The translations under genes and the position numbers were made by a program. The notes under the pieces are model-generated. The model worked only from the letters and a program-made list of their open reading frames with translations. It did not search any database and was not told where the DNA came from. 64,000 nucleotides of DNA from a virus, in IMG/VR virus record IMGVR_UViG_3300010371_000028, positions 68,778 to 132,777 of that record; one strand, given 5' to 3'. Shown here piece by piece: positions 3,991 to 54,771 of the stretch (the first letter of the stretch is position 1; every line of letters starts with the position of its first letter).

Positions 3991-4256
3991 TTCGCCCGCC
4001 TCAGGGTCGCGCCTTCGAGCCAGCTCTTCGCTTTGCAGGCCGGGCACCTTAGGGCCGGAGTCACCGTGAGCGGCTCGGTGAGCACGATCGTCCACTCGCC
4101 GCGTCCATTGCCGTGCCCGCGGAACGGGAAGTTCGCCGCACACCAGGTGCCGTCGGTCCGCTGATGCGTCCACCTGACGCCAGTCGGGCGAGACGAACCG
4201 TCGCGGTAGAGGAGCTCGTACGCGTCGGTCGTCGGCGGGTGGGTGATGGCAGTCAA
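3987..4256 (-). CDS. Hypothetical protein with Cys motifs (DUF6527-like)
   Basis: WTIVLTEPLTVTPALRCPAC; TTG start with GAGGCAGG RBS. Confidence 0.45.
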   Translation of the reverse strand: MTAITHPPTTDAYELLYRDGSSRPTGVRWTHQRTDGTWCAANFPFRGHGNGRGEWTIVLTEPLTVTPALRCPACKAKSWLEGATLRRAK

Positions 4257-4323
4257 AGCCACCTGCCTCGATGAGGGTTTCCCGCGCGAGATCGTTCCGT
4301 GGATGCCGCGCGGGAAAACTAAG

Positions 4324-4394
4324 TGGCCGTGGCAGGGGTCGCACCTGCGTCTCGGCCGGGGGGAGAGGCCGGATTCTCGCTGAACTACACGGCC
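4324..4394 (-). ncRNA. tRNA-like cloverleaf (non-canonical; 9-nt anticodon loop, no CCA)
   Basis: Acceptor GGCCGTG/CACGGCC, D-arm GTTC-AGCGA-GAAT, CGGCC-TCTCCCCCC-GGCCG, T-arm GCAGG-TGCGACC-CCTGC, discriminator A. Confidence 0.65.
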
Positions 4395-4446
4395 ACGCAT
4401 CCCGACACCCGGACCCTCGGCCAGGTGCGGGAAGTCTTGGGAAGCC

Positions 4447-4472
4447 GAAAAGCCGCCCGTAGGCGGCTTCTC
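4447..4472 (-). terminator. Intrinsic terminator/attenuator-like hairpin
   Basis: AGAAGCCGCC-TACG-GGCGGCTTTT on minus strand. Confidence 0.6.
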
Positions 4473-4572
4473 AAGGCGGGCGCTCAGTCCGGTCCGGCCG
4501 GAAGCCGGACGAGCACCACTTCCCGGCCAAACCGGCACGGGCAATTCTTCGGCTGGGCGCTATGCGCTCAAG

Positions 4573-27533: not shown

Positions 27534-27726
27534 GCCGGAATCCGCCCCGCTGGACTGGCGCTCAGCCCGCGTCGGCGAGCCGCTGCCGTGCCAGGCGTGC
27601 GGACGGCCGGCGCTGCTGAGACACCCGGTCACGAGGCAGCCGCATCACAAAGTCTGCGCTGATGCGACTGGCGAATCGACGATAAGCGCAGTCCAGAAGT
27701 CGTATGCGAGGGATAATCAGGCATGA
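27520..27726 (+). CDS. Small Zn-finger-like protein
   Basis: CQAC...HKVC. Confidence 0.5.
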   Translation: MAARRPESAPLDWRSARVGEPLPCQACGRPALLRHPVTRQPHHKVCADATGESTISAVQKSYARDNQA

Positions 27727-28523
27727 CCGACTCGACGAGCATGGGCGACCGCTTCAAGGCGTACGAGCACGCATACCGGCTCTCGTTCCCGCGCCGCCTC
27801 CCGATCGTGATTCGCGCGGACGGGCGCGCCTTCCATTCCTATCTGCGCGGCGCCACGAAGCCCTTCGACCTGGGCTTCATCGAGGACATGGGCCACGTCG
27901 CGGTCGCGCTCTGTACGGAGATCTCCGGCGCGGTGTTCGCCTACCACCAGTCGGACGAGATCAGCGTGCTCGTGCAGGACTGGGTGGGCGAGCACGCGGA
28001 ACCGTGGTTCGCTGGCGAGTTGCAGAAGATCGTGTCGCTGTCCGCTGCGATAGCCACCTCGGCGCTCGGCGCGCGCCGCCCTGGCCGGCCGCTGTTCGAC
28101 GCCCGCGCGTTCGTCCTGCCGAACACGATCGAGGTAGCGAATTACCTCCTTTGGCGCCAGCGCGATGCCGTCCGCAACTCGATCTCCATGGCGGCGCAGG
28201 CGCACTTCAGCCACAAGCGGCTCCAGGGCGTCAACGGCAACCAGATGCAGGAGATGCTGTTCGCCGAGCACGGGATCAACTGGAACGACTACCCGGCCGA
28301 ATGCAGGCGCGGGCAGGTCGTCATCAAGGCCGGTGGCGAGCGCGAAGTCACCTACATCGACAAGCGCACCGGGCAGGAATGCACGACCAAGGCGTACCGC
28401 ACCTGGTGGGAAGTCCAGGCCGCGCCCAGGTTCACGGCCGAACCGGGCGGCTGGCTCGCCGAGCAGATCCCACCGATGCCGAGCCTGCACGACGTTCCAG
28501 GCAACGACGGAGCCAAGCCGTGA
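27723..28523 (+). CDS. thg1: tRNA(His) guanylyltransferase Thg1-like protein (3'-5' RNA polymerase)
   Basis: IRADGRAFH, YHQSDEIS, QKIVS, FDAR, WRQRDAVRNS, INWND. Confidence 0.92.
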   Translation: MTDSTSMGDRFKAYEHAYRLSFPRRLPIVIRADGRAFHSYLRGATKPFDLGFIEDMGHVAVALCTEISGAVFAYHQSDEISVLVQDWVGEHAEPWFAGELQKIVSLSAAIATSALGARRPGRPLFDARAFVLPNTIEVANYLLWRQRDAVRNSISMAAQAHFSHKRLQGVNGNQMQEMLFAEHGINWNDYPAECRRGQVVIKAGGEREVTYIDKRTGQECTTKAYRTWWEVQAAPRFTAEPGGWLAEQIPPMPSLHDVPGNDGAKP

Positions 28524-34210: not shown

Positions 34211-34446
34211 CGGCCGGACTCGTGCTTCATCTTCCGGGCGGAAGGCTACGGGACCGACGCCCGATCCGAGAAGCCTTCGCCGTTTCGTAACCGACCGTGG
34301 CCGTCGAGCACCCCAATGCGCCGTTTCGCGCCCCGAGTGCACCCCGCGCCCCCCGTGCGTGCGAATGCATGTGCACGTTGCAGCGGCTAGGTTCCCCCGT
34401 GCAGGGACAGGCTCGCTCTCAGAGCCCCGACACGGAAGGGAAAGCC

Positions 34447-34650
34447 ATGGAGATCACCACCGCCTGGCGCAAGTCCAGCTACAGCGGCGCGAACGGCAAC
34501 TGCCTGGAGATCGCGGCCACGGTCGACGGCCTCGTCGCGATCCGCAACTCGAACCGACCCAACGACGGCGCGATCCTCTACACCAAGGACGAACTGCGCG
34601 CGTTCCTCGCCGGCGCCCGGGACGGCGAGTTCGACGACCTCGCCGCCTGA
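34447..34650 (+). CDS. DUF397 domain protein
   Basis: WRKSSYSGANGNCLEIA...VAIRNS...ELRAFLAGARDGEFD. Confidence 0.92.
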   Translation: MEITTAWRKSSYSGANGNCLEIAATVDGLVAIRNSNRPNDGAILYTKDELRAFLAGARDGEFDDLAA

Positions 34651-38179: not shown

Positions 38180-38390
38180 CGAGGAGTCCCCGTTCCGCCC
38201 GTTCGCGTTCGGCCCGATCCCCGCTGACCATCCGATACTGGACGCGGGCGGGTTCGTCGACCTCGTCGCGGCGTACGGACCTGATGCCGGGCGGCCTGTG
38301 GCCGAAGCCGGGCTGTACGCGGGGCTCATGTCCGACGACTGGCTGCTGCGGCTCGCATACCCCAACCGATCAGGAGAAGACGATGGCTGA
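38172..38390 (+). CDS. Hypothetical protein
   Basis: Overlap-coupled. Confidence 0.5.
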   Translation: MPDEESPFRPFAFGPIPADHPILDAGGFVDLVAAYGPDAGRPVAEAGLYAGLMSDDWLLRLAYPNRSGEDDG

Positions 38391-38802
38391 GCACAAGACA
38401 AAGGGCGGACACCCGTCCGGCGACACGCCCGTGAGCGCGATGTCGTTCCCGGAAGCGTTCACGCGCCCCGCGATGCGGTCGAGTTCGGTCGACCTGCTCG
38501 ACGCCGCAACAAGGTTCAGCTTCGGAGCGGTCGGATCCCAGAACCCGCATGCGCAGATCGATGTCGAGGTCCGCCGCAACGCGTTCGAACCCGGCAGCGT
38601 CCGCTGGATCATCACATGCGCGGGCTGGACCTACACGCACGACGGCCGTTGGCTGTACGAGAACATCCCGGGCGAGCGCACCGAAGAGTACATCGAGGCG
38701 ACACGATGGCGGAGCCGCGACGAGGCGATCAGCGTCGCCCGCGGGCTCCTCGTGGACGGACACCCGAACAACGACGCGTGGACGAGAGGGCGGCGGTTGT
38801 AG
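38383..38802 (+). CDS. Hypothetical protein
   Basis: AGGAGA RBS. Confidence 0.6.
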   Translation: MAEHKTKGGHPSGDTPVSAMSFPEAFTRPAMRSSSVDLLDAATRFSFGAVGSQNPHAQIDVEVRRNAFEPGSVRWIITCAGWTYTHDGRWLYENIPGERTEEYIEATRWRSRDEAISVARGLLVDGHPNNDAWTRGRRL

Positions 38803-38835: not shown

Positions 38836-38997
38836 ATGGAGCCCGCCGTGGACACCGCCCCCGCCGAGACCGTCGCCGCCATCGATGACACCCGTGAGGC
38901 GCCCCTCGGTACGCTGTCGGCCGCTCCGGTCCTGCGCCGGCTCAAGCCCGCCGACACCAAGCGCGTCCCGGTCGCCGCGTTCAACGCATCGCTCTGA
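38836..38997 (+). CDS. FxSxx-COOH-like precursor peptide (53 aa, ends VAAFNASL; not in ORF track)
   Basis: MEPAVDTAPAETVAAIDDTREAPLGTLSAAPVLRRLKPADTKRVPVAAFNASL*. Confidence 0.65.
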   Translation: MEPAVDTAPAETVAAIDDTREAPLGTLSAAPVLRRLKPADTKRVPVAAFNASL

Positions 38998-39015
38998 CGT
39001 CCCCACGCACGAAAC

Positions 39016-39046
39016 CGCCCCGCTCACCTGGATGGTGGGCGGGGCG
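39016..39046 (+). terminator. Hairpin after peptide gene
   Basis: CGCCCCGCTCACC-TGGAT-GGTGGGCGGGGCG. Confidence 0.55.
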
Positions 39047-39183
39047 AAACGTTCCCAGGACCAGTGCGACGGACGTACCCTGGGCGGTGAGACAGCCAAC
39101 AGCAGTCTAGGCGCCCCAACCGACACGCGGCAGCCAGTCGCGCGGCGCACGGGCACAGACCGCACGCCCAAAGGACGGCACGC

Positions 39184-40410
39184 ATGGAGCAGCCGCACGC
39201 CGACATGCCCATCGGCGAACGCATCGCGCACTACCGGGCCCGCAAAGGCCTGACGCAACTCGGTCTCGGCGGGATGGTGAACCGCAGCGAGGACTGGGTC
39301 TCCAAGGTCGAACGCGGGGTGATCCCCGTATCCTCGTTCTCGATGCTCGTCGACCTCGCCCACGCCCTCGGAGTCAAAGACCTCGTGAAGTTGACCGGGC
39401 ACCCCCTCGCCCTCGCGCCGAACGGCTCAGCGGAACACCAGTCGGTCGCGGGCATCCGCGCGGCGATGTCCGGGCTCCCCGCGACCCGCGGCGACGAGGT
39501 CCAGGCTCTCGCCGTGGGTGATCTCGCCCGCCAGGTGGCGGACGCCTGGAAGATCTACGACACCGACAAAGCGCGCTATTCTCGCCTCGGCCCGGTGCTG
39601 CCCGGCCTACTCGGGCAGGCGCACCGCGCCGTGCGCGACGCGAGCGCCGAGGACGCCCCGCTTGCCACCCGGGGCTTGGTCGAGACATACCACCTGCTAC
39701 AGGTGTTCTTGAAGCGTCTGGGCGAGCCTGAACTCGCGCGCCTAGCTGCGGACCGAGCACTAACGTTGGCGTCCGATTCCGGCGACCTGGTGCTGATGGG
39801 TGCGAGCGCCTGGAATCTCGGCGCCATCATGTTGAACCGGGGCGAAGGCGACCTCGCGCTCGACCTGGCACGGCAGATGATCGGGCTGATGAACCCGATC
39901 CCGGACGACGCGCCGGCCGAATACGTGTCCGTGTACGGCGCGCTGCATCTGGTCGCCACGATCGCCTGTGCCCGCTCGGGCCAGTCGCCGCGCGGATGGG
40001 ACTTCCTGGAGCAGGCTCGGCAGATCGGCGCCCGACTCGGGCAGGACCGCAACGACTGGCGCACCTCCTTCGGCCCGACGAACGTGGCGATGCACGGCGT
40101 CCACCTGGCCGGCGAAGAGGGCGACCCGACCGAGGCGCTGCGCCTGGCCGACGACGTCGAGGTCATCGACGGGGTCCTGCCGCTGGAGCGCACGACCCGG
40201 TACTTCGTCGAGGTGATGCAGGCGAACCGGCTAAGGAAGGACGATGTCGGGACGTTGTACATGCTGCAGAAGATCGAGCGCCAGTCCCCGGACGAGATCA
40301 GGTACTTTCCGGTGGCGCGGGAGGCGATCAGGGATCTGCTGAAGCGGGAGCGGTCGTTCTACCGGCAGGACCTGCGAGCGCTGGCGACCCGCGTGGGCGT
40401 GATCGGGTAG
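39184..40410 (+). CDS. XRE-HTH regulator with long all-helical (TPR-like) C-domain
   Basis: IGERIAHYRARKGLTQLGLGGMVNRSEDWVSKVERG; about 330 aa Ala/Leu helical repeats. Confidence 0.85.
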   Translation: MEQPHADMPIGERIAHYRARKGLTQLGLGGMVNRSEDWVSKVERGVIPVSSFSMLVDLAHALGVKDLVKLTGHPLALAPNGSAEHQSVAGIRAAMSGLPATRGDEVQALAVGDLARQVADAWKIYDTDKARYSRLGPVLPGLLGQAHRAVRDASAEDAPLATRGLVETYHLLQVFLKRLGEPELARLAADRALTLASDSGDLVLMGASAWNLGAIMLNRGEGDLALDLARQMIGLMNPIPDDAPAEYVSVYGALHLVATIACARSGQSPRGWDFLEQARQIGARLGQDRNDWRTSFGPTNVAMHGVHLAGEEGDPTEALRLADDVEVIDGVLPLERTTRYFVEVMQANRLRKDDVGTLYMLQKIERQSPDEIRYFPVAREAIRDLLKRERSFYRQDLRALATRVGVIG

Positions 40411-40458
40411 CCCGGAAGGGCGAAGACCCGGAACCGGGTTCCGGGTCAGTGGCCTGAC

Positions 40459-40779
40459 GTGCCGTTACTTTCACGGAGAGTGGAGACGGCGATACGTCAG
40501 GAGACCGCGGTGATCACCAGACCTGATCCGGAGTGGCAGCTGCAGTTGGAGCGCGAGCCCCGCACCACCCATGCTGGGCGCATCGCGCTGCCGATAACGC
40601 TCCGGGCGCACGGCGAGATGCTCGCGGTCGTCGATCTCGTACTCGATGGCGCCACGGCGACCCGGCTGCACGCGGCGCTTACCGCGCACCTGAGCGGCCA
40701 TGGCGCCGGTCCGAGCGCGTCGGTGCGGAGCAGGGCGGATCTGCTCGAAGCGTGCACGGCGATCGGCGCGGCCCGGTGA
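40459..40779 (+). CDS. Hypothetical protein
   Basis: ORF track, coupled to next gene. Confidence 0.5.
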   Translation: MPLLSRRVETAIRQETAVITRPDPEWQLQLEREPRTTHAGRIALPITLRAHGEMLAVVDLVLDGATATRLHAALTAHLSGHGAGPSASVRSRADLLEACTAIGAAR

Positions 40780-41249
40780 GCCTCGCGGAGGCGGTGCGCG
40801 CGGATCTCCCGGCAACCACCGAGGCGCCCGGGCTGGCCCGCGGCGAGGTCCGCGGCGCACTGTCCAAACTGGGTCTCGACCATCTCACGGACGAGGCGGA
40901 ACTGATCGCCTCGGAGATCACGACGAACGCGGTCATTCACGGCCGCGGCCCGATCCGGCTGTGCGTGTACGAAGACGCCGGCCTCCTGTTCGTCGAGGTC
41001 GAAGACGGCGGCGGAGAGCAGGAACCGGCCCTGCGTGAGCCGGACGCTGGCGCGGAGTCGGGCCGCGGCCTGGAGATCGTGGAGGCGCTCGCCGCGGACT
41101 GGGGTGTCGAGGCGCTCCCGGGCGGCGTGCGCGTGTGGGCGTCGCTCGAGACCGCGCTGCGGCTGAACGACGAGCCTGCCGACCCGGGGCCCTCGCGTGC
41201 GCATACGGAGGAGCTCGTGGCCGCTGTGACGGCAGGGGCGGTGCGGTGA
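40776..41249 (+). CDS. ATP-binding protein (HATPase_c, RsbW-like)
   Basis: SEITTNAVIHG, VED, ESGRGL. Confidence 0.85.
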   Translation: MSLAEAVRADLPATTEAPGLARGEVRGALSKLGLDHLTDEAELIASEITTNAVIHGRGPIRLCVYEDAGLLFVEVEDGGGEQEPALREPDAGAESGRGLEIVEALAADWGVEALPGGVRVWASLETALRLNDEPADPGPSRAHTEELVAAVTAGAVR

Positions 41250-41467
41250 TGTTCCACGCCAGCAACGGGATCATCGCGGTGATTCTCACTGCCGACGAGG
41301 CACTCAAGATCTTCCACGCCCACGAGAAGTCCCGGGTCGGCAGCCCCACCCAGGGCTTTACCGTCTGGCCCGTCGGCGAGATGGGCCGCATCATCACGTG
41401 TGCCTGGACGCGCGTCGAACCGATCGAGGGTATCCCGGCGGAACTGCTCGAGCGGTTCGAGTTCTGA
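41249..41467 (+). CDS. Hypothetical protein
   Basis: TGATG coupling. Confidence 0.55.
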   Translation: MFHASNGIIAVILTADEALKIFHAHEKSRVGSPTQGFTVWPVGEMGRIITCAWTRVEPIEGIPAELLERFEF

Positions 41468-41490
41468 GCCCTGGCGGAACACCCGGAACT

Positions 41491-41518
41491 AGCGGCCCCC
41501 GGTAGGAGCGGGGGCCGC
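41491..41518 (+). terminator. Hairpin ending regulator operon
   Basis: GCGGCCCCC...GGGGGCCGC. Confidence 0.55.
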
Positions 41519-41818
41519 GTGCCGAAACCGTTGGCCGGCAGCCGCAATCCAACGGCCGTCAAAGGTCATACGTCCGACCGATCGAGGGCGCATACTGGTG
41601 CGGTGCCTGACACCACGCCCCCTCTGTGCATTCGCATCCTGAAGCGCCCGCGCCGCCTGTGCGCTGGCAGTCCGCCAGCCGCCGCTGGGCTCCCGCCGGT
41701 TCGCTCCTGTTCCTGGCGAAGGAGCTCGAGGAGGCCGAGGCCGAGTCCCCGGGCGAACTCCGTGCTGTTGCCAGGCGGGCCGCGTACGCGCTCCGGGCCC
41801 TCGCGGCAGGGGTCGACG

Positions 41819-48473: not shown

Positions 48474-48677
48474 CTAGCCGATCACGCGCACGTCGGCCGC
48501 CTGCGGGCCCTTGGCTCCCTGTGTGGTCGAAAACTCCACGCGCTGCCCCTCTTCGAGGCTGCGGTAGCCGTCGCCGACCACTGCCGAGTAATGGACGAAG
48601 ACGTCCGGGCCGCCGCCGTCGACCGTGATGAAGCCGAAGCCCTTCTCGCCGAACCACTTCACTGAACCTGTTGCCAC
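48474..48677 (-). CDS. cspA: Cold-shock protein (CspA family)
   Basis: [12 protein letters not shown]1 KGFGFI, RNP2 VFVHYS, GPQAADV. Confidence 0.93.
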
Positions 48678-54569: not shown

Positions 54570-54771
54570 GACGACCGCCGAAGCTGAGCCGCGCCGCCAG
54601 CGCGATGACCCCGACCGCCGCGAAGCAGTAGACAATGCCCGCGACCGAACGGACCGTGCCATGAGTCCCGAGCGCGACACCGAACGCGGCTAGCGCCACC
54701 GGCAGCAGCGCCAGCAGTACGACACCGCGCCAGCCAGAGCGGGTAGCGGAACGCGCGAGGCGGCTACTCAT
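54562..54771 (-). CDS. Small 2-TM membrane protein
   Basis: GAGGAGG RBS; two hydrophobic segments. Confidence 0.6.
   Translation of the reverse strand: MSSRLARSATRSGWRGVVLLALLPVALAAFGVALGTHGTVRSVAGIVYCFAAVGVIALAARLSFGGRRG

Follow-up and report, generated by a model that had tools for sequence, protein, structure and literature searches.

A phage gene for a peptide of about 50 residues with an FxSxx-COOH-like C-terminus, located 5' of a regulator that combines a helix-turn-helix with helical repeats, raises the question of which partner this peptide has. The original prediction had proposed a repurposed peptide, acting either as ligand of the adjacent regulator or as decoy of host Fxs systems. 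The window, that is, the whole stretch of DNA analysed, comprises 64,000 nucleotides (positions 68,778 to 132,777 of the IMG/VR virus record IMGVR_UViG_3300010371_000028), and all coordinates are given on it. FxsA is the precursor peptide of actinomycetes whose gene immediately precedes that of FxsB, a radical SAM/SPASM maturase that forms cyclophanes; FxsA and FxsB constitute a chemically characterised RiPP pair, the products of which are strained cyclophanes.

Extent and coding evidence of the peptide gene

The features of the locus are the following.

38848..38997, + strand: FxsA-like orphan precursor gene (FxSxx-COOH family, FNASL tail), 49 aa from GTG 38848, with a GGAG ribosome-binding site
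38998..41560, no strand assigned: accessory cassette (hairpin, leader, regulator, small ORF, HATPase and 72-aa ORF), missing in L004
39016..39046, + strand: conserved hairpin; stem of 13 bp, UGGAU loop, -32.6 kcal/mol (z = -3.0)
39047..39183, + strand: highly conserved non-coding leader or promoter of the regulator, containing invariant boxes, e.g. CAGCAGTCTAGG and GCGGCAGCCAG
39184..40410, + strand: XRE-type HTH_31 + TPR-solenoid transcriptional regulator, 408 aa, phrog_5823 (HTH_31 E 8e-11)
40510..40779, + strand: small ORF, 89 aa (106 aa from GTG 40459), phrog_28759, constant downstream partner of the regulator family
40776..41249, + strand: HATPase_c_2 anti-sigma-factor-like ATP-binding protein, 157 aa, phrog_12354 (family matches)
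41249..41467, + strand: 72-aa ORF, last gene of the indel cassette, matching no family

The 53-aa reading frame originally reported was present at 38836–38997 (+), starting from an ATG at 38836 and with the C-terminal end ...PVLRRLKPADTKRVPVAAFNASL-stop. From the DNA, GTG 38848 is judged the likelier start; the pair of GGAG and GTG is also kept in the relative L023, and the 49-aa form was chosen by gene callers on a near-identical 29-kb contig. The peptide ends in RVPVAAFNASL, with Phe at -5 and Ala at -3, so that the Ala noted earlier at the position of Ser was correctly read and the tail departs from strict F-x-S-x-x-COOH. Read directly, the sequence shows an acidic N-terminus and no signal peptide, the latter in agreement with the earlier observation.

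It is extremely improbable that this frame is no gene at all, arising by chance in GC-rich DNA or as the 3' tail of the transcript of the upstream gene. Such an origin would suit the very short length of the ORF, its being in frame with the upstream ORF in four lineages and the lack of a family for the peptide itself in Pfam and PHROGs; against it, the GC contents at codon positions 1, 2 and 3 (0.74/0.57/0.89) follow the coding pattern of a genome of ~70% GC, the GGAG-GTG start is conserved, homologues are annotated as genes in many genomes, and substitutions are mostly synonymous. The dN/dS ratio was 0.19 against L004 and 0.39 against L030, and the last 15 codons carried five synonymous and 0–1 non-synonymous changes (five and none against L004). 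These patterns indicate a real gene under purifying selection. Stop-codon read-through from the upstream gene was considered and rejected: the upstream stops are a mixture of TAG, TGA and TAA and thus bear no read-through signature, and the peptide has a start of its own.

The peptide gene sits in a mosaic region dense with small accessory genes, in which indels are frequent. Among public sequencing runs, the stretch was present in DNA runs of soil metagenomes only, none of them RNA: those of the probable source sample and those of a second study, the latter with shares of 0.66–0.69.

Relationship of the peptide with FxsB-linked precursors

A profile search recovered ~19 peptides of 45–56 aa and one of 91 aa; in every case the alignment ran up to the C-terminal end of the peptide. 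TIGR04268 was touched by 18 of the 21 members of the peptide family (best E 6.5e-8) and the SjiA model NF040585 by five. Comparison with TIGR04268, which had been suggested as a check, gave a divided result for the peptide of the window: at 10.8 bits for the 53-aa form and 11.7 bits for the 49-aa form (E 0.24–0.48) it scores under the curated cut-off of 28 bits, and its alignment does reach the end of the model on the C-terminal side. The last 12 residues were cut from 13 cellular peptides that adjoin FxsB, and the resulting leader-only HMM scored 29.7 bits (E 2.7e-8) on the leader of the phage peptide; among ~1,200 other segments from the six-frame translation of the window, the highest score was 9.1 bits. 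The leader motifs D-x-R-x-x-P-L ... L-R-R-x-x-P are common to the FxsB-linked cellular precursors, and the core V-x-V-A-A-F-N-A/S-S-L likewise matches theirs. On this sequence evidence the peptide is homologous to RiPP precursors of FxsA type in both leader and tail.

All 13 cellular actinomycete loci that encode homologues have the peptide just 5' of an ORF of 750–825 aa. Five of these large ORFs were tested (L010, L012, L013, L018 and L019) and all were true FxsB, with TIGR04269 scores of 516–580 bits (cut-off 370); an AAC(3)-like acetyltransferase and a TIR-like FxsC come next downstream in the cellular loci tested. The tail FNASL itself terminates precursors of FxsB-linked loci in Actinospica and Actinocrinis (L010, L011 and L012), and FNSSI-tailed homologues lie directly 5' of FxsB in Planobispora, Microbispora and Planotetraspora. 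Because FNASL precursors adjoin FxsB, Ala at this position is a natural variant of FxsA and no mark of repurposing, contrary to what the substitution had been taken to mean, and not every FxsB-linked precursor has the strict FxSxx motif.

The phage peptide resembles FxsA, TIGR04268 and SjiA (NF040585) peptides in its size of ~50 aa, its leader motifs and its C-terminal ...V-A-A-F-N-x-S-L; the FxsB-linked homologues from Actinospica and Actinocrinis are up to 55% identical to it, and some of them share the identical FNASL tail. It differs from them by its encoding in a phage that has no FxsB, FxsC or radical SAM gene in 132.8 kb, as well as by Ala for Ser at -3 and the score under the TIGR04268 cut-off. 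The peptide subfamily was present in 4 of the 401 sampled genomes of the class.

The regulator cassette and its separability from the peptide

The 408-aa regulator, the small ORF and the HATPase gene were all present in the order described earlier, with HTH_31, TPR, phrog_28759 and HATPase_c_2 matches. The hairpin once assigned to the peptide is real, with compensatory changes at three base pairs among five relatives; its assignment did not hold. It also precedes regulators that have no upstream peptide (L034 and L032), and L004 lacks the cassette, its peptide gene running straight into the counterpart of position 41561 onward (L004 179–301 corresponds to 38871–38993 of the window and L004 347–497 to 41561–41710). 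By these comparisons the hairpin is placed as the left edge of the regulator cassette and as no part of the peptide gene; its probable role is that of an intrinsic terminator or insulator. The leader that follows it has a mean column identity of 78% across five phages whose upstream peptide genes differ.

Homologues of the regulator numbered at least 396, mostly from Streptomyces and its phages. Small ORFs of ~73–96 aa homologous to that of the window stand 3' of the regulator in L001, L002 and L007, which are SF1-like phage loci, as well as in prophages of Streptomyces, and in L032 a STAS protein takes the place of the HATPase. Cassettes with hairpin, leader, regulator and small ORF, and with no FxsA-like ORF, were found in ~20 phage or prophage loci, including relatives of 69–75% identity. 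Conversely, the peptide occurs without the cassette in four phage lineages, as in L004 and the viral contigs L027–L029, and in the 13 cellular loci. By locus comparison the cassette is therefore a separable module independent of the peptide; the regulator, the small ORF and the HATPase_c_2 gene form an accessory regulatory unit with their own hairpin and leader.

The peptide and the regulator are nevertheless neighbours in five related phage lineages (the window, L023–26, L030, L031 and L033), in which the FxsA-like gene lies ~190 nt 5' of the regulator and the flanking genes differ, and within one clade of ~115–130 kb phages the peptide is always just 5' of the cassette. Conservation beside such regulators, the lack of which had been named as part of a refutation, is seen in five lineages of one phage clade and fails in L004 and L027–L029. 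This clade-wide adjacency could mean a functional link; the reading favoured below takes it as synteny.

Such a link would exist if the unmodified peptide were the cognate ligand of the adjacent regulator, in a switch like those of RRNPP or arbitrium systems. Besides the adjacency despite differing flanks, the HTH+TPR architecture speaks for it: the AlphaFold2 model of the regulator (pLDDT 89.7) is an all-helical solenoid, and Foldseek matched it to TPR peptide binders, PlcR, Rap and Rgg2 (E 1e-4 to 2e-3, TM-scores ~0.2–0.45), although generic TPR proteins match it as well as or better than RRNPP receptors. Against it stand the persistence of the peptide where the cassette is lacking, the ~20 loci in which the cassette does without the peptide, the hairpin interposed between the two genes, the acidic N-terminus with no signal peptide, and the fact that the conserved residues of the peptide are those conserved in FxsB-linked cellular precursors. 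Co-variation of peptide and regulator, another check suggested at the outset, was not observed: the closest regulator, that of L033, is 88% identical, yet its peptide is the most divergent (47% identical, FGSSI type). Complex prediction of the TPR domain of the regulator (residues 70–408) with the peptide gave 0.00 in both runs, which were made without controls and have no bearing either way. We consider this reading very unlikely, and the claim of a ligand is not upheld; the peptide is probably not the ligand of the neighbouring regulator, and the supposed switch most likely consists of two unrelated modules that are neighbours by chance.

The RRNPP systems (PlcR-PapR, Rap-Phr, Rgg-SHP and the AimR-AimP arbitrium) are among the closest known relatives in design. 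The phage regulator shares with them the N-terminal XRE HTH and the TPR solenoid; PlcR-PapR, Rgg2 and Rap, among them the Rap of phage phi3T, can be aligned with its model, and a small gene adjoins it. However, these systems have a secreted propeptide and Firmicute hosts, whereas here the phage probably infects an actinomycete and the peptide carries no signal sequence. The peptide gene is located upstream with a hairpin in between, the cassette can do without it, and the peptide does not co-vary with the regulator; the structural matches are weak.

Gene sets with WhiJ, BldB (DUF397) and AbaA-like anti-sigma proteins are developmental loci of Streptomyces. The phage cassette is like them in the XRE HTH_31 regulator with a HATPase_c_2 anti-sigma-like protein, and the same phage has a DUF397 gene at 34297–34650; in L030 a DUF397 gene lies directly 5' of the peptide. 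It differs from them in that the C-terminal domain of WhiJ-type proteins is shorter than the ~320-aa TPR solenoid of the phage regulator, the constant partner of which is instead an unrelated small ORF of ~75–106 aa (phrog_28759). The regulator also gave a weak NsdA-like match.

Orphan precursors in viruses and the host Fxs system

No match to TIGR04269 or PF04055 (FxsB/radical SAM) was found across the whole 132,777-bp virus record, which extends to the complete record the earlier observation that the window has no radical SAM gene. The peptide gene is accordingly an orphan, since the record has no FxsB maturase, and its description as an FxsA-like orphan agrees with the homology of leader and tail and with FxsB standing beside its cellular homologues. 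Orphan copies recur across four or more separate viral records and several more phage-like metagenomic contigs; the peptides have two types of C-terminal tail, and some copies stand in tandem. The three other viral records with orphan copies likewise had no FxsB/radical SAM gene, one of them being 100% complete (CheckV). The scan of viral contigs that found three orphan-bearing contigs used a 21-sequence alignment; a 2-sequence version, the patterns of which were too specific, confirmed nothing. When the peptide was compared by tblastn with the 50,697 phage records of GenBank, nothing matched at E <= 1, a result of little information with so short and low-complexity a query, and the literature searched contained no report of an FxsA encoded by a phage.

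These copies bear on whether the gene is a captured passenger, namely a fragment of a host Fxs locus that is functionless or has a function unrelated to Fxs, e.g. as a small protein of the phage that acts on some other target. The indel-rich surroundings full of small accessory genes and the missing partner enzyme would fit such a capture, but the purifying selection, with a core invariant despite many synonymous changes, the recurrence of orphan copies and the retention of the core together with the recognition motifs of the leader do not, and we regard it as unlikely.

We lean instead towards a phage-borne orphan FxsA precursor that acts via the FxsB/Fxs system of the host, as borrowed substrate or decoy. 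The gene is a selectively kept phage homologue of FxsA, predicted to be translated; since the phage has no maturase, its product would most likely work through the host Fxs machinery. An interaction with host FxsB, together with any anti-defence or signalling outcome, is what we infer: the enzyme would bind the phage peptide, the leader motifs and core of which are kept as in FxsB-linked precursors. The peptide may then be processed as a borrowed substrate, giving a host-type peptide of phage origin, or it may compete for host FxsB, and by either route the host Fxs system would be steered or blunted. The decoy, which had been one of the two roles originally proposed, is therefore plausible for an FxsA-like orphan with FxsB beside its cellular homologues and no maturase in the record. 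The sub-cut-off TIGR04268 score, the rarity of the subfamily among the sampled genomes and an Fxs immune role that is only predicted set limits on this reading.

That immune role comes from a comparative-genomics preprint of 2026 in which FxsC (an active TIR) and FxsT (ParA with an inactive TIR) are predicted to form an apoptosis-type immune system, the FxsAB peptide is suggested to be an antiviral molecule or an alarm signal, and the predicted suicide-type FxsC/FxsT immunity is placed in multicellular actinomycetes (10.64898/2026.10.19.760177). Phages with the precursor only, in which the enzyme-recognition leader and the core are conserved, would be expected if the Fxs system matters during infection, and a phage orphan FxsA would offer a direct experimental handle on its role.

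Peptide and cassette could also belong to one circuit, in which host FxsB matures the phage peptide and the HTH+TPR regulator binds the cyclophane product, with the small partner and the anti-sigma-like ATPase taking part. The phage would then sense an active host Fxs (TIR-ParA) immune locus and switch its programme. We judge this highly improbable; what speaks for it is the conserved adjacency in the 115–130 kb phage clade, across two tail types.

The phage probably has its host among soil actinomycetes that are Streptomyces-like or Catenulisporales-like. When 20 kb of the window were searched at DNA level against five Fxs-bearing genomes, the matches fell mainly in two multi-copy genes, those of the cold-shock CSD and DUF397 proteins.

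Peptide gene and phage record

The IMG/VR virus record (132,777 bp, linear), of which the window covers bases 68778-132777, was 89% complete according to CheckV, and the GC content of the window was about 70%. The window encodes a DnaB-like helicase, a DNA polymerase exonuclease subunit, a DNA methyltransferase, a Thg1-like enzyme and an Rv2179c-like exoribonuclease, a gene content of phage replication and nucleotide metabolism, interspersed with numerous small ORFs on the same strand. Near-identical DNA was present in soil metagenomes of at least two studies. The Thg1-like tRNA-His guanylyltransferase is located at 27723-28523 (+) (phrog_4717, E 3.4e-73), two tRNA-Gly genes (anticodons CCC and GCC) at 4323-4394 and 54663-54740 (-), and a cold-shock-domain protein (CSD, E 1.7e-27) at 48474-48677 (-), its DNA 70-77% identical to many actinomycete genome copies.

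The ORF of 53 aa, the regulator, the small ORF and the HATPase of the original prediction were all confirmed in place:

38836-38997 (+): peptide ORF, 53 aa, C-terminus ...RVPVAAFNASL
39016-39046: hairpin, 13-bp stem, -32.6 kcal/mol, z -3.0
39184-40410: regulator carrying HTH_31
40510-40779: small ORF, phrog_28759
40776-41249: HATPase_c_2 protein

By codon position (1/2/3), the GC content of the peptide ORF (0.74/0.57/0.89) follows the pattern of coding DNA in this genome. Translation more probably begins at GTG 38848 (49 aa), preceded at six bases by GGAG, an arrangement kept in the relative L023 and adopted in the gene calls of a near-identical 29-kb contig. A word-based search retrieved a 70%-identical homologue (P0002, on contig L004). 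When 1.84 billion representatives were searched in full with a HMMER profile, about 19 peptides 45-56 aa long and one 91-aa form emerged, each aligned end-to-end as far as its own C-terminus, ...V(P/A)VAAFN(A/S)SL or a close variant. The last 15 codons showed 5 synonymous and 0 non-synonymous substitutions against L004 (dN/dS 0.19 over 40 codons) and 5 and 1 against the relative L030 (dN/dS 0.39 over 40 codons), patterns that show purifying selection. The ORF is a genuine, conserved gene. The main rival explanation, a passenger gene with some other function or none, is rather unlikely, as this selection speaks against it.

FxsA-type precursors and their association with FxsB

The TIGR04268 profile, proposed as a check, left the peptide itself below the cut-off (10.8-11.7 bits against 28), but was touched by 18 of 21 members of its family (best E 6.5e-8); the SjiA model was touched by 5. 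On a leader-only HMM built from 13 cellular peptides, the window leader reached 29.7 bits (E 2.7e-8), against a maximum of 9.1 bits among some 1,200 further six-frame segments of the window; by this profile the likeness to FxsA extends beyond the tail into the leader.

The decisive evidence for FxsA-type identity is genomic: the homologues adjoin FxsB. When one genome was scanned for each GTDB species, 13 loci with homologues were found, and the cellular genera bearing them were Actinospica, Actinocrinis, Planobispora, Streptosporangium, Microbispora and Planotetraspora. An ORF of 750-825 aa lies immediately 3' of the peptide in 11 of the 13, the sequence of the other two (L015 and L017) stopping just past the peptide. 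Each of the five ORFs tested was a true FxsB carrying a fused aKG-HExxH hydroxylase domain (TIGR04269, 516-580 bits, cut-off 370), followed in the tested loci by an AAC(3)-like acetyltransferase and a TIR-like FxsC. The AAC(3)-like N-acetyltransferase genes between FxsB and FxsC (L010 10707-11537, L012 3557-4360, L019 10436-11272) remained below the cut-off of the AAC(3) model (270), with scores of 142-182 bits.

Three FxsB-linked precursors (L010, L011 and L012) end in FNASL and one (L018) in FNASI, so that alanine at the 'Ser' position is a natural variant of Fxs precursors and no mark of the repurposing once read from it. By sequence comparison, the window ORF is classified as an FxsA-type precursor. 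The reported lack of a radical SAM gene in the window was correct and extends, for FxsB as well, to the entire 132.8-kb record.

Regulator cassette and its relation to the peptide

The AlphaFold2 model of the regulator (pLDDT 89.7) consists of an HTH and then a TPR solenoid. Its non-coding leader of about 140 nt (39047-39183) is strikingly conserved, with invariant boxes such as CAGCAGTCTAGG and GCGGCAGCCAG, and is kept among phages with 75-88% identical regulators (L023, L030, L031, L033, L034 and L032 were examined); this conservation points to operator sites or to a structured 5' UTR. Hairpin and leader align in five phages despite differing upstream peptide genes, with 3 compensatory pairs, and also precede the peptide-less regulators of L034 and L032. 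Since both travel with the regulator, the hairpin, correctly detected, is the left edge of the cassette and not the peptide's own.

As far as examined, soil phages, SF1/SF3-like loci of Streptomyces phages and Streptomyces prophages have a small ORF (phrog_28759, about 73-106 aa) 3' of the regulator. This ORF is a better candidate for the partner or ligand of the regulator than the upstream peptide. Copies in related loci are:

L001 4202-4492
L007 4300-4566
L050 5309-5566
L051 5307-5576

In L032, a 60-kb viral contig with a serine recombinase gene upstream, a STAS protein (anti-sigma-antagonist, 4104-4478) replaces the HATPase_c_2 gene 3' of a 69%-identical regulator, which hints at a partner-switching logic. 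The cassette resembles Streptomyces developmental regulator sets in its XRE-TPR regulator, constant small partner and anti-sigma-like ATPase, with a further parallel in the phage's DUF397 gene, located elsewhere in its genome. It probably serves the phage or prophage as a regulatory module of the partner-switching type. DUF397 (BldB-like) genes in this phage clade are found in the window (34297-34650, +), L030 (825-1028, directly 5' of the FxsA-like gene) and L023 (1620-1823).

Peptide and regulator had been interpreted as a peptide-controlled switch, which is now improbable. In its favour, an FxsA-like gene lies about 190 nt 5' of every regulator at least 75% identical that has enough upstream DNA (L023-26, L030, L031 with two in tandem, and L033; L034, the exception, has just 711 nt upstream), and the regulator model weakly resembles, besides peptide-binding TPR proteins, the RRNPP receptors PlcR, Rap and Rgg2 (E 1e-4 to 2e-3, TM-scores about 0.2-0.45), generic TPR proteins scoring equally or higher. 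Against it, L004 keeps the peptide gene and lacks window 38998-41560 (hairpin, leader, regulator, small ORF, HATPase and a 72-aa ORF), homology restarting at 41561. The regulator family has at least 396 members, chiefly in Streptomyces and its phages; in SF1-like phage loci (L001, L002, L007) and Streptomyces prophages it lies 3' of lysis genes, with a homologous ORF of about 73-96 aa downstream as its partner, and no FxsA-like ORF was found in about 20 such loci; the family usually lacks the peptide. Moreover, the anticipated co-variation is missing: in L033, whose regulator is nearest to that of the window (88% identity), the peptide upstream is the most divergent one, with 47% identity, a longer leader and an FGSSI tail, and three further viral contigs carry the peptide without regulator. 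Sensing of the matured peptide by the regulator is less probable still.

Peptide and cassette are separable modules. Genes farther upstream vary among L023-26, L030, L031 and L033, and the adjacency pattern is compatible with an accessory-gene hot spot at the left border of the cassette in one mosaic phage clade. The 139-aa ORF immediately 5' of the peptide gene (38383-38802, +), without family match and missing from L023, is a further small indel of this region. In Streptomyces phage SF3 (L002 7327-7550), a B12-binding radical SAM protein, by annotation not FxsB-type, is located about 3 kb 3' of the regulator copy.

Possible action on the host Fxs system

An orphan Fxs precursor acting on the system of the host is the favoured reading, held with moderate confidence. 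The leader and core positions kept in the phage copies are exactly those conserved among FxsB-linked precursors, and a maturase is lacking, so recognition by host FxsB would be the most economical reading. Once bound, the peptide could act as borrowed substrate or as competitor, and such a look-alike might mute, saturate or counterfeit the host Fxs signal. A 2026 preprint predicts FxsC to be an active TIR protein that degrades NAD+ and FxsT to combine a ParA with an inactive TIR domain, the two forming an antiviral, apoptosis-type system in multicellular actinomycetes, in which the FxsAB peptide may itself be antiviral or serve as a diffusible alarm signal (10.64898/2026.10.19.760177).

The regulator-free viral contigs are L027 (122.7 kb, 100% complete by CheckV, FNSSL tail), L028 (40 kb, temperate-looking) and L029 (two peptide copies in tandem); FxsB is absent from all three records. 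Tandem FxsA-like genes with differing tails occur in L031 (1941-2301), L029 (5791-6386) and L020/L022 (7532-8159), the tail pairs on the phage contigs being FNASL with FGSSI and FNASL with FQSYI. Planotetraspora Fxs loci likewise have two precursors.
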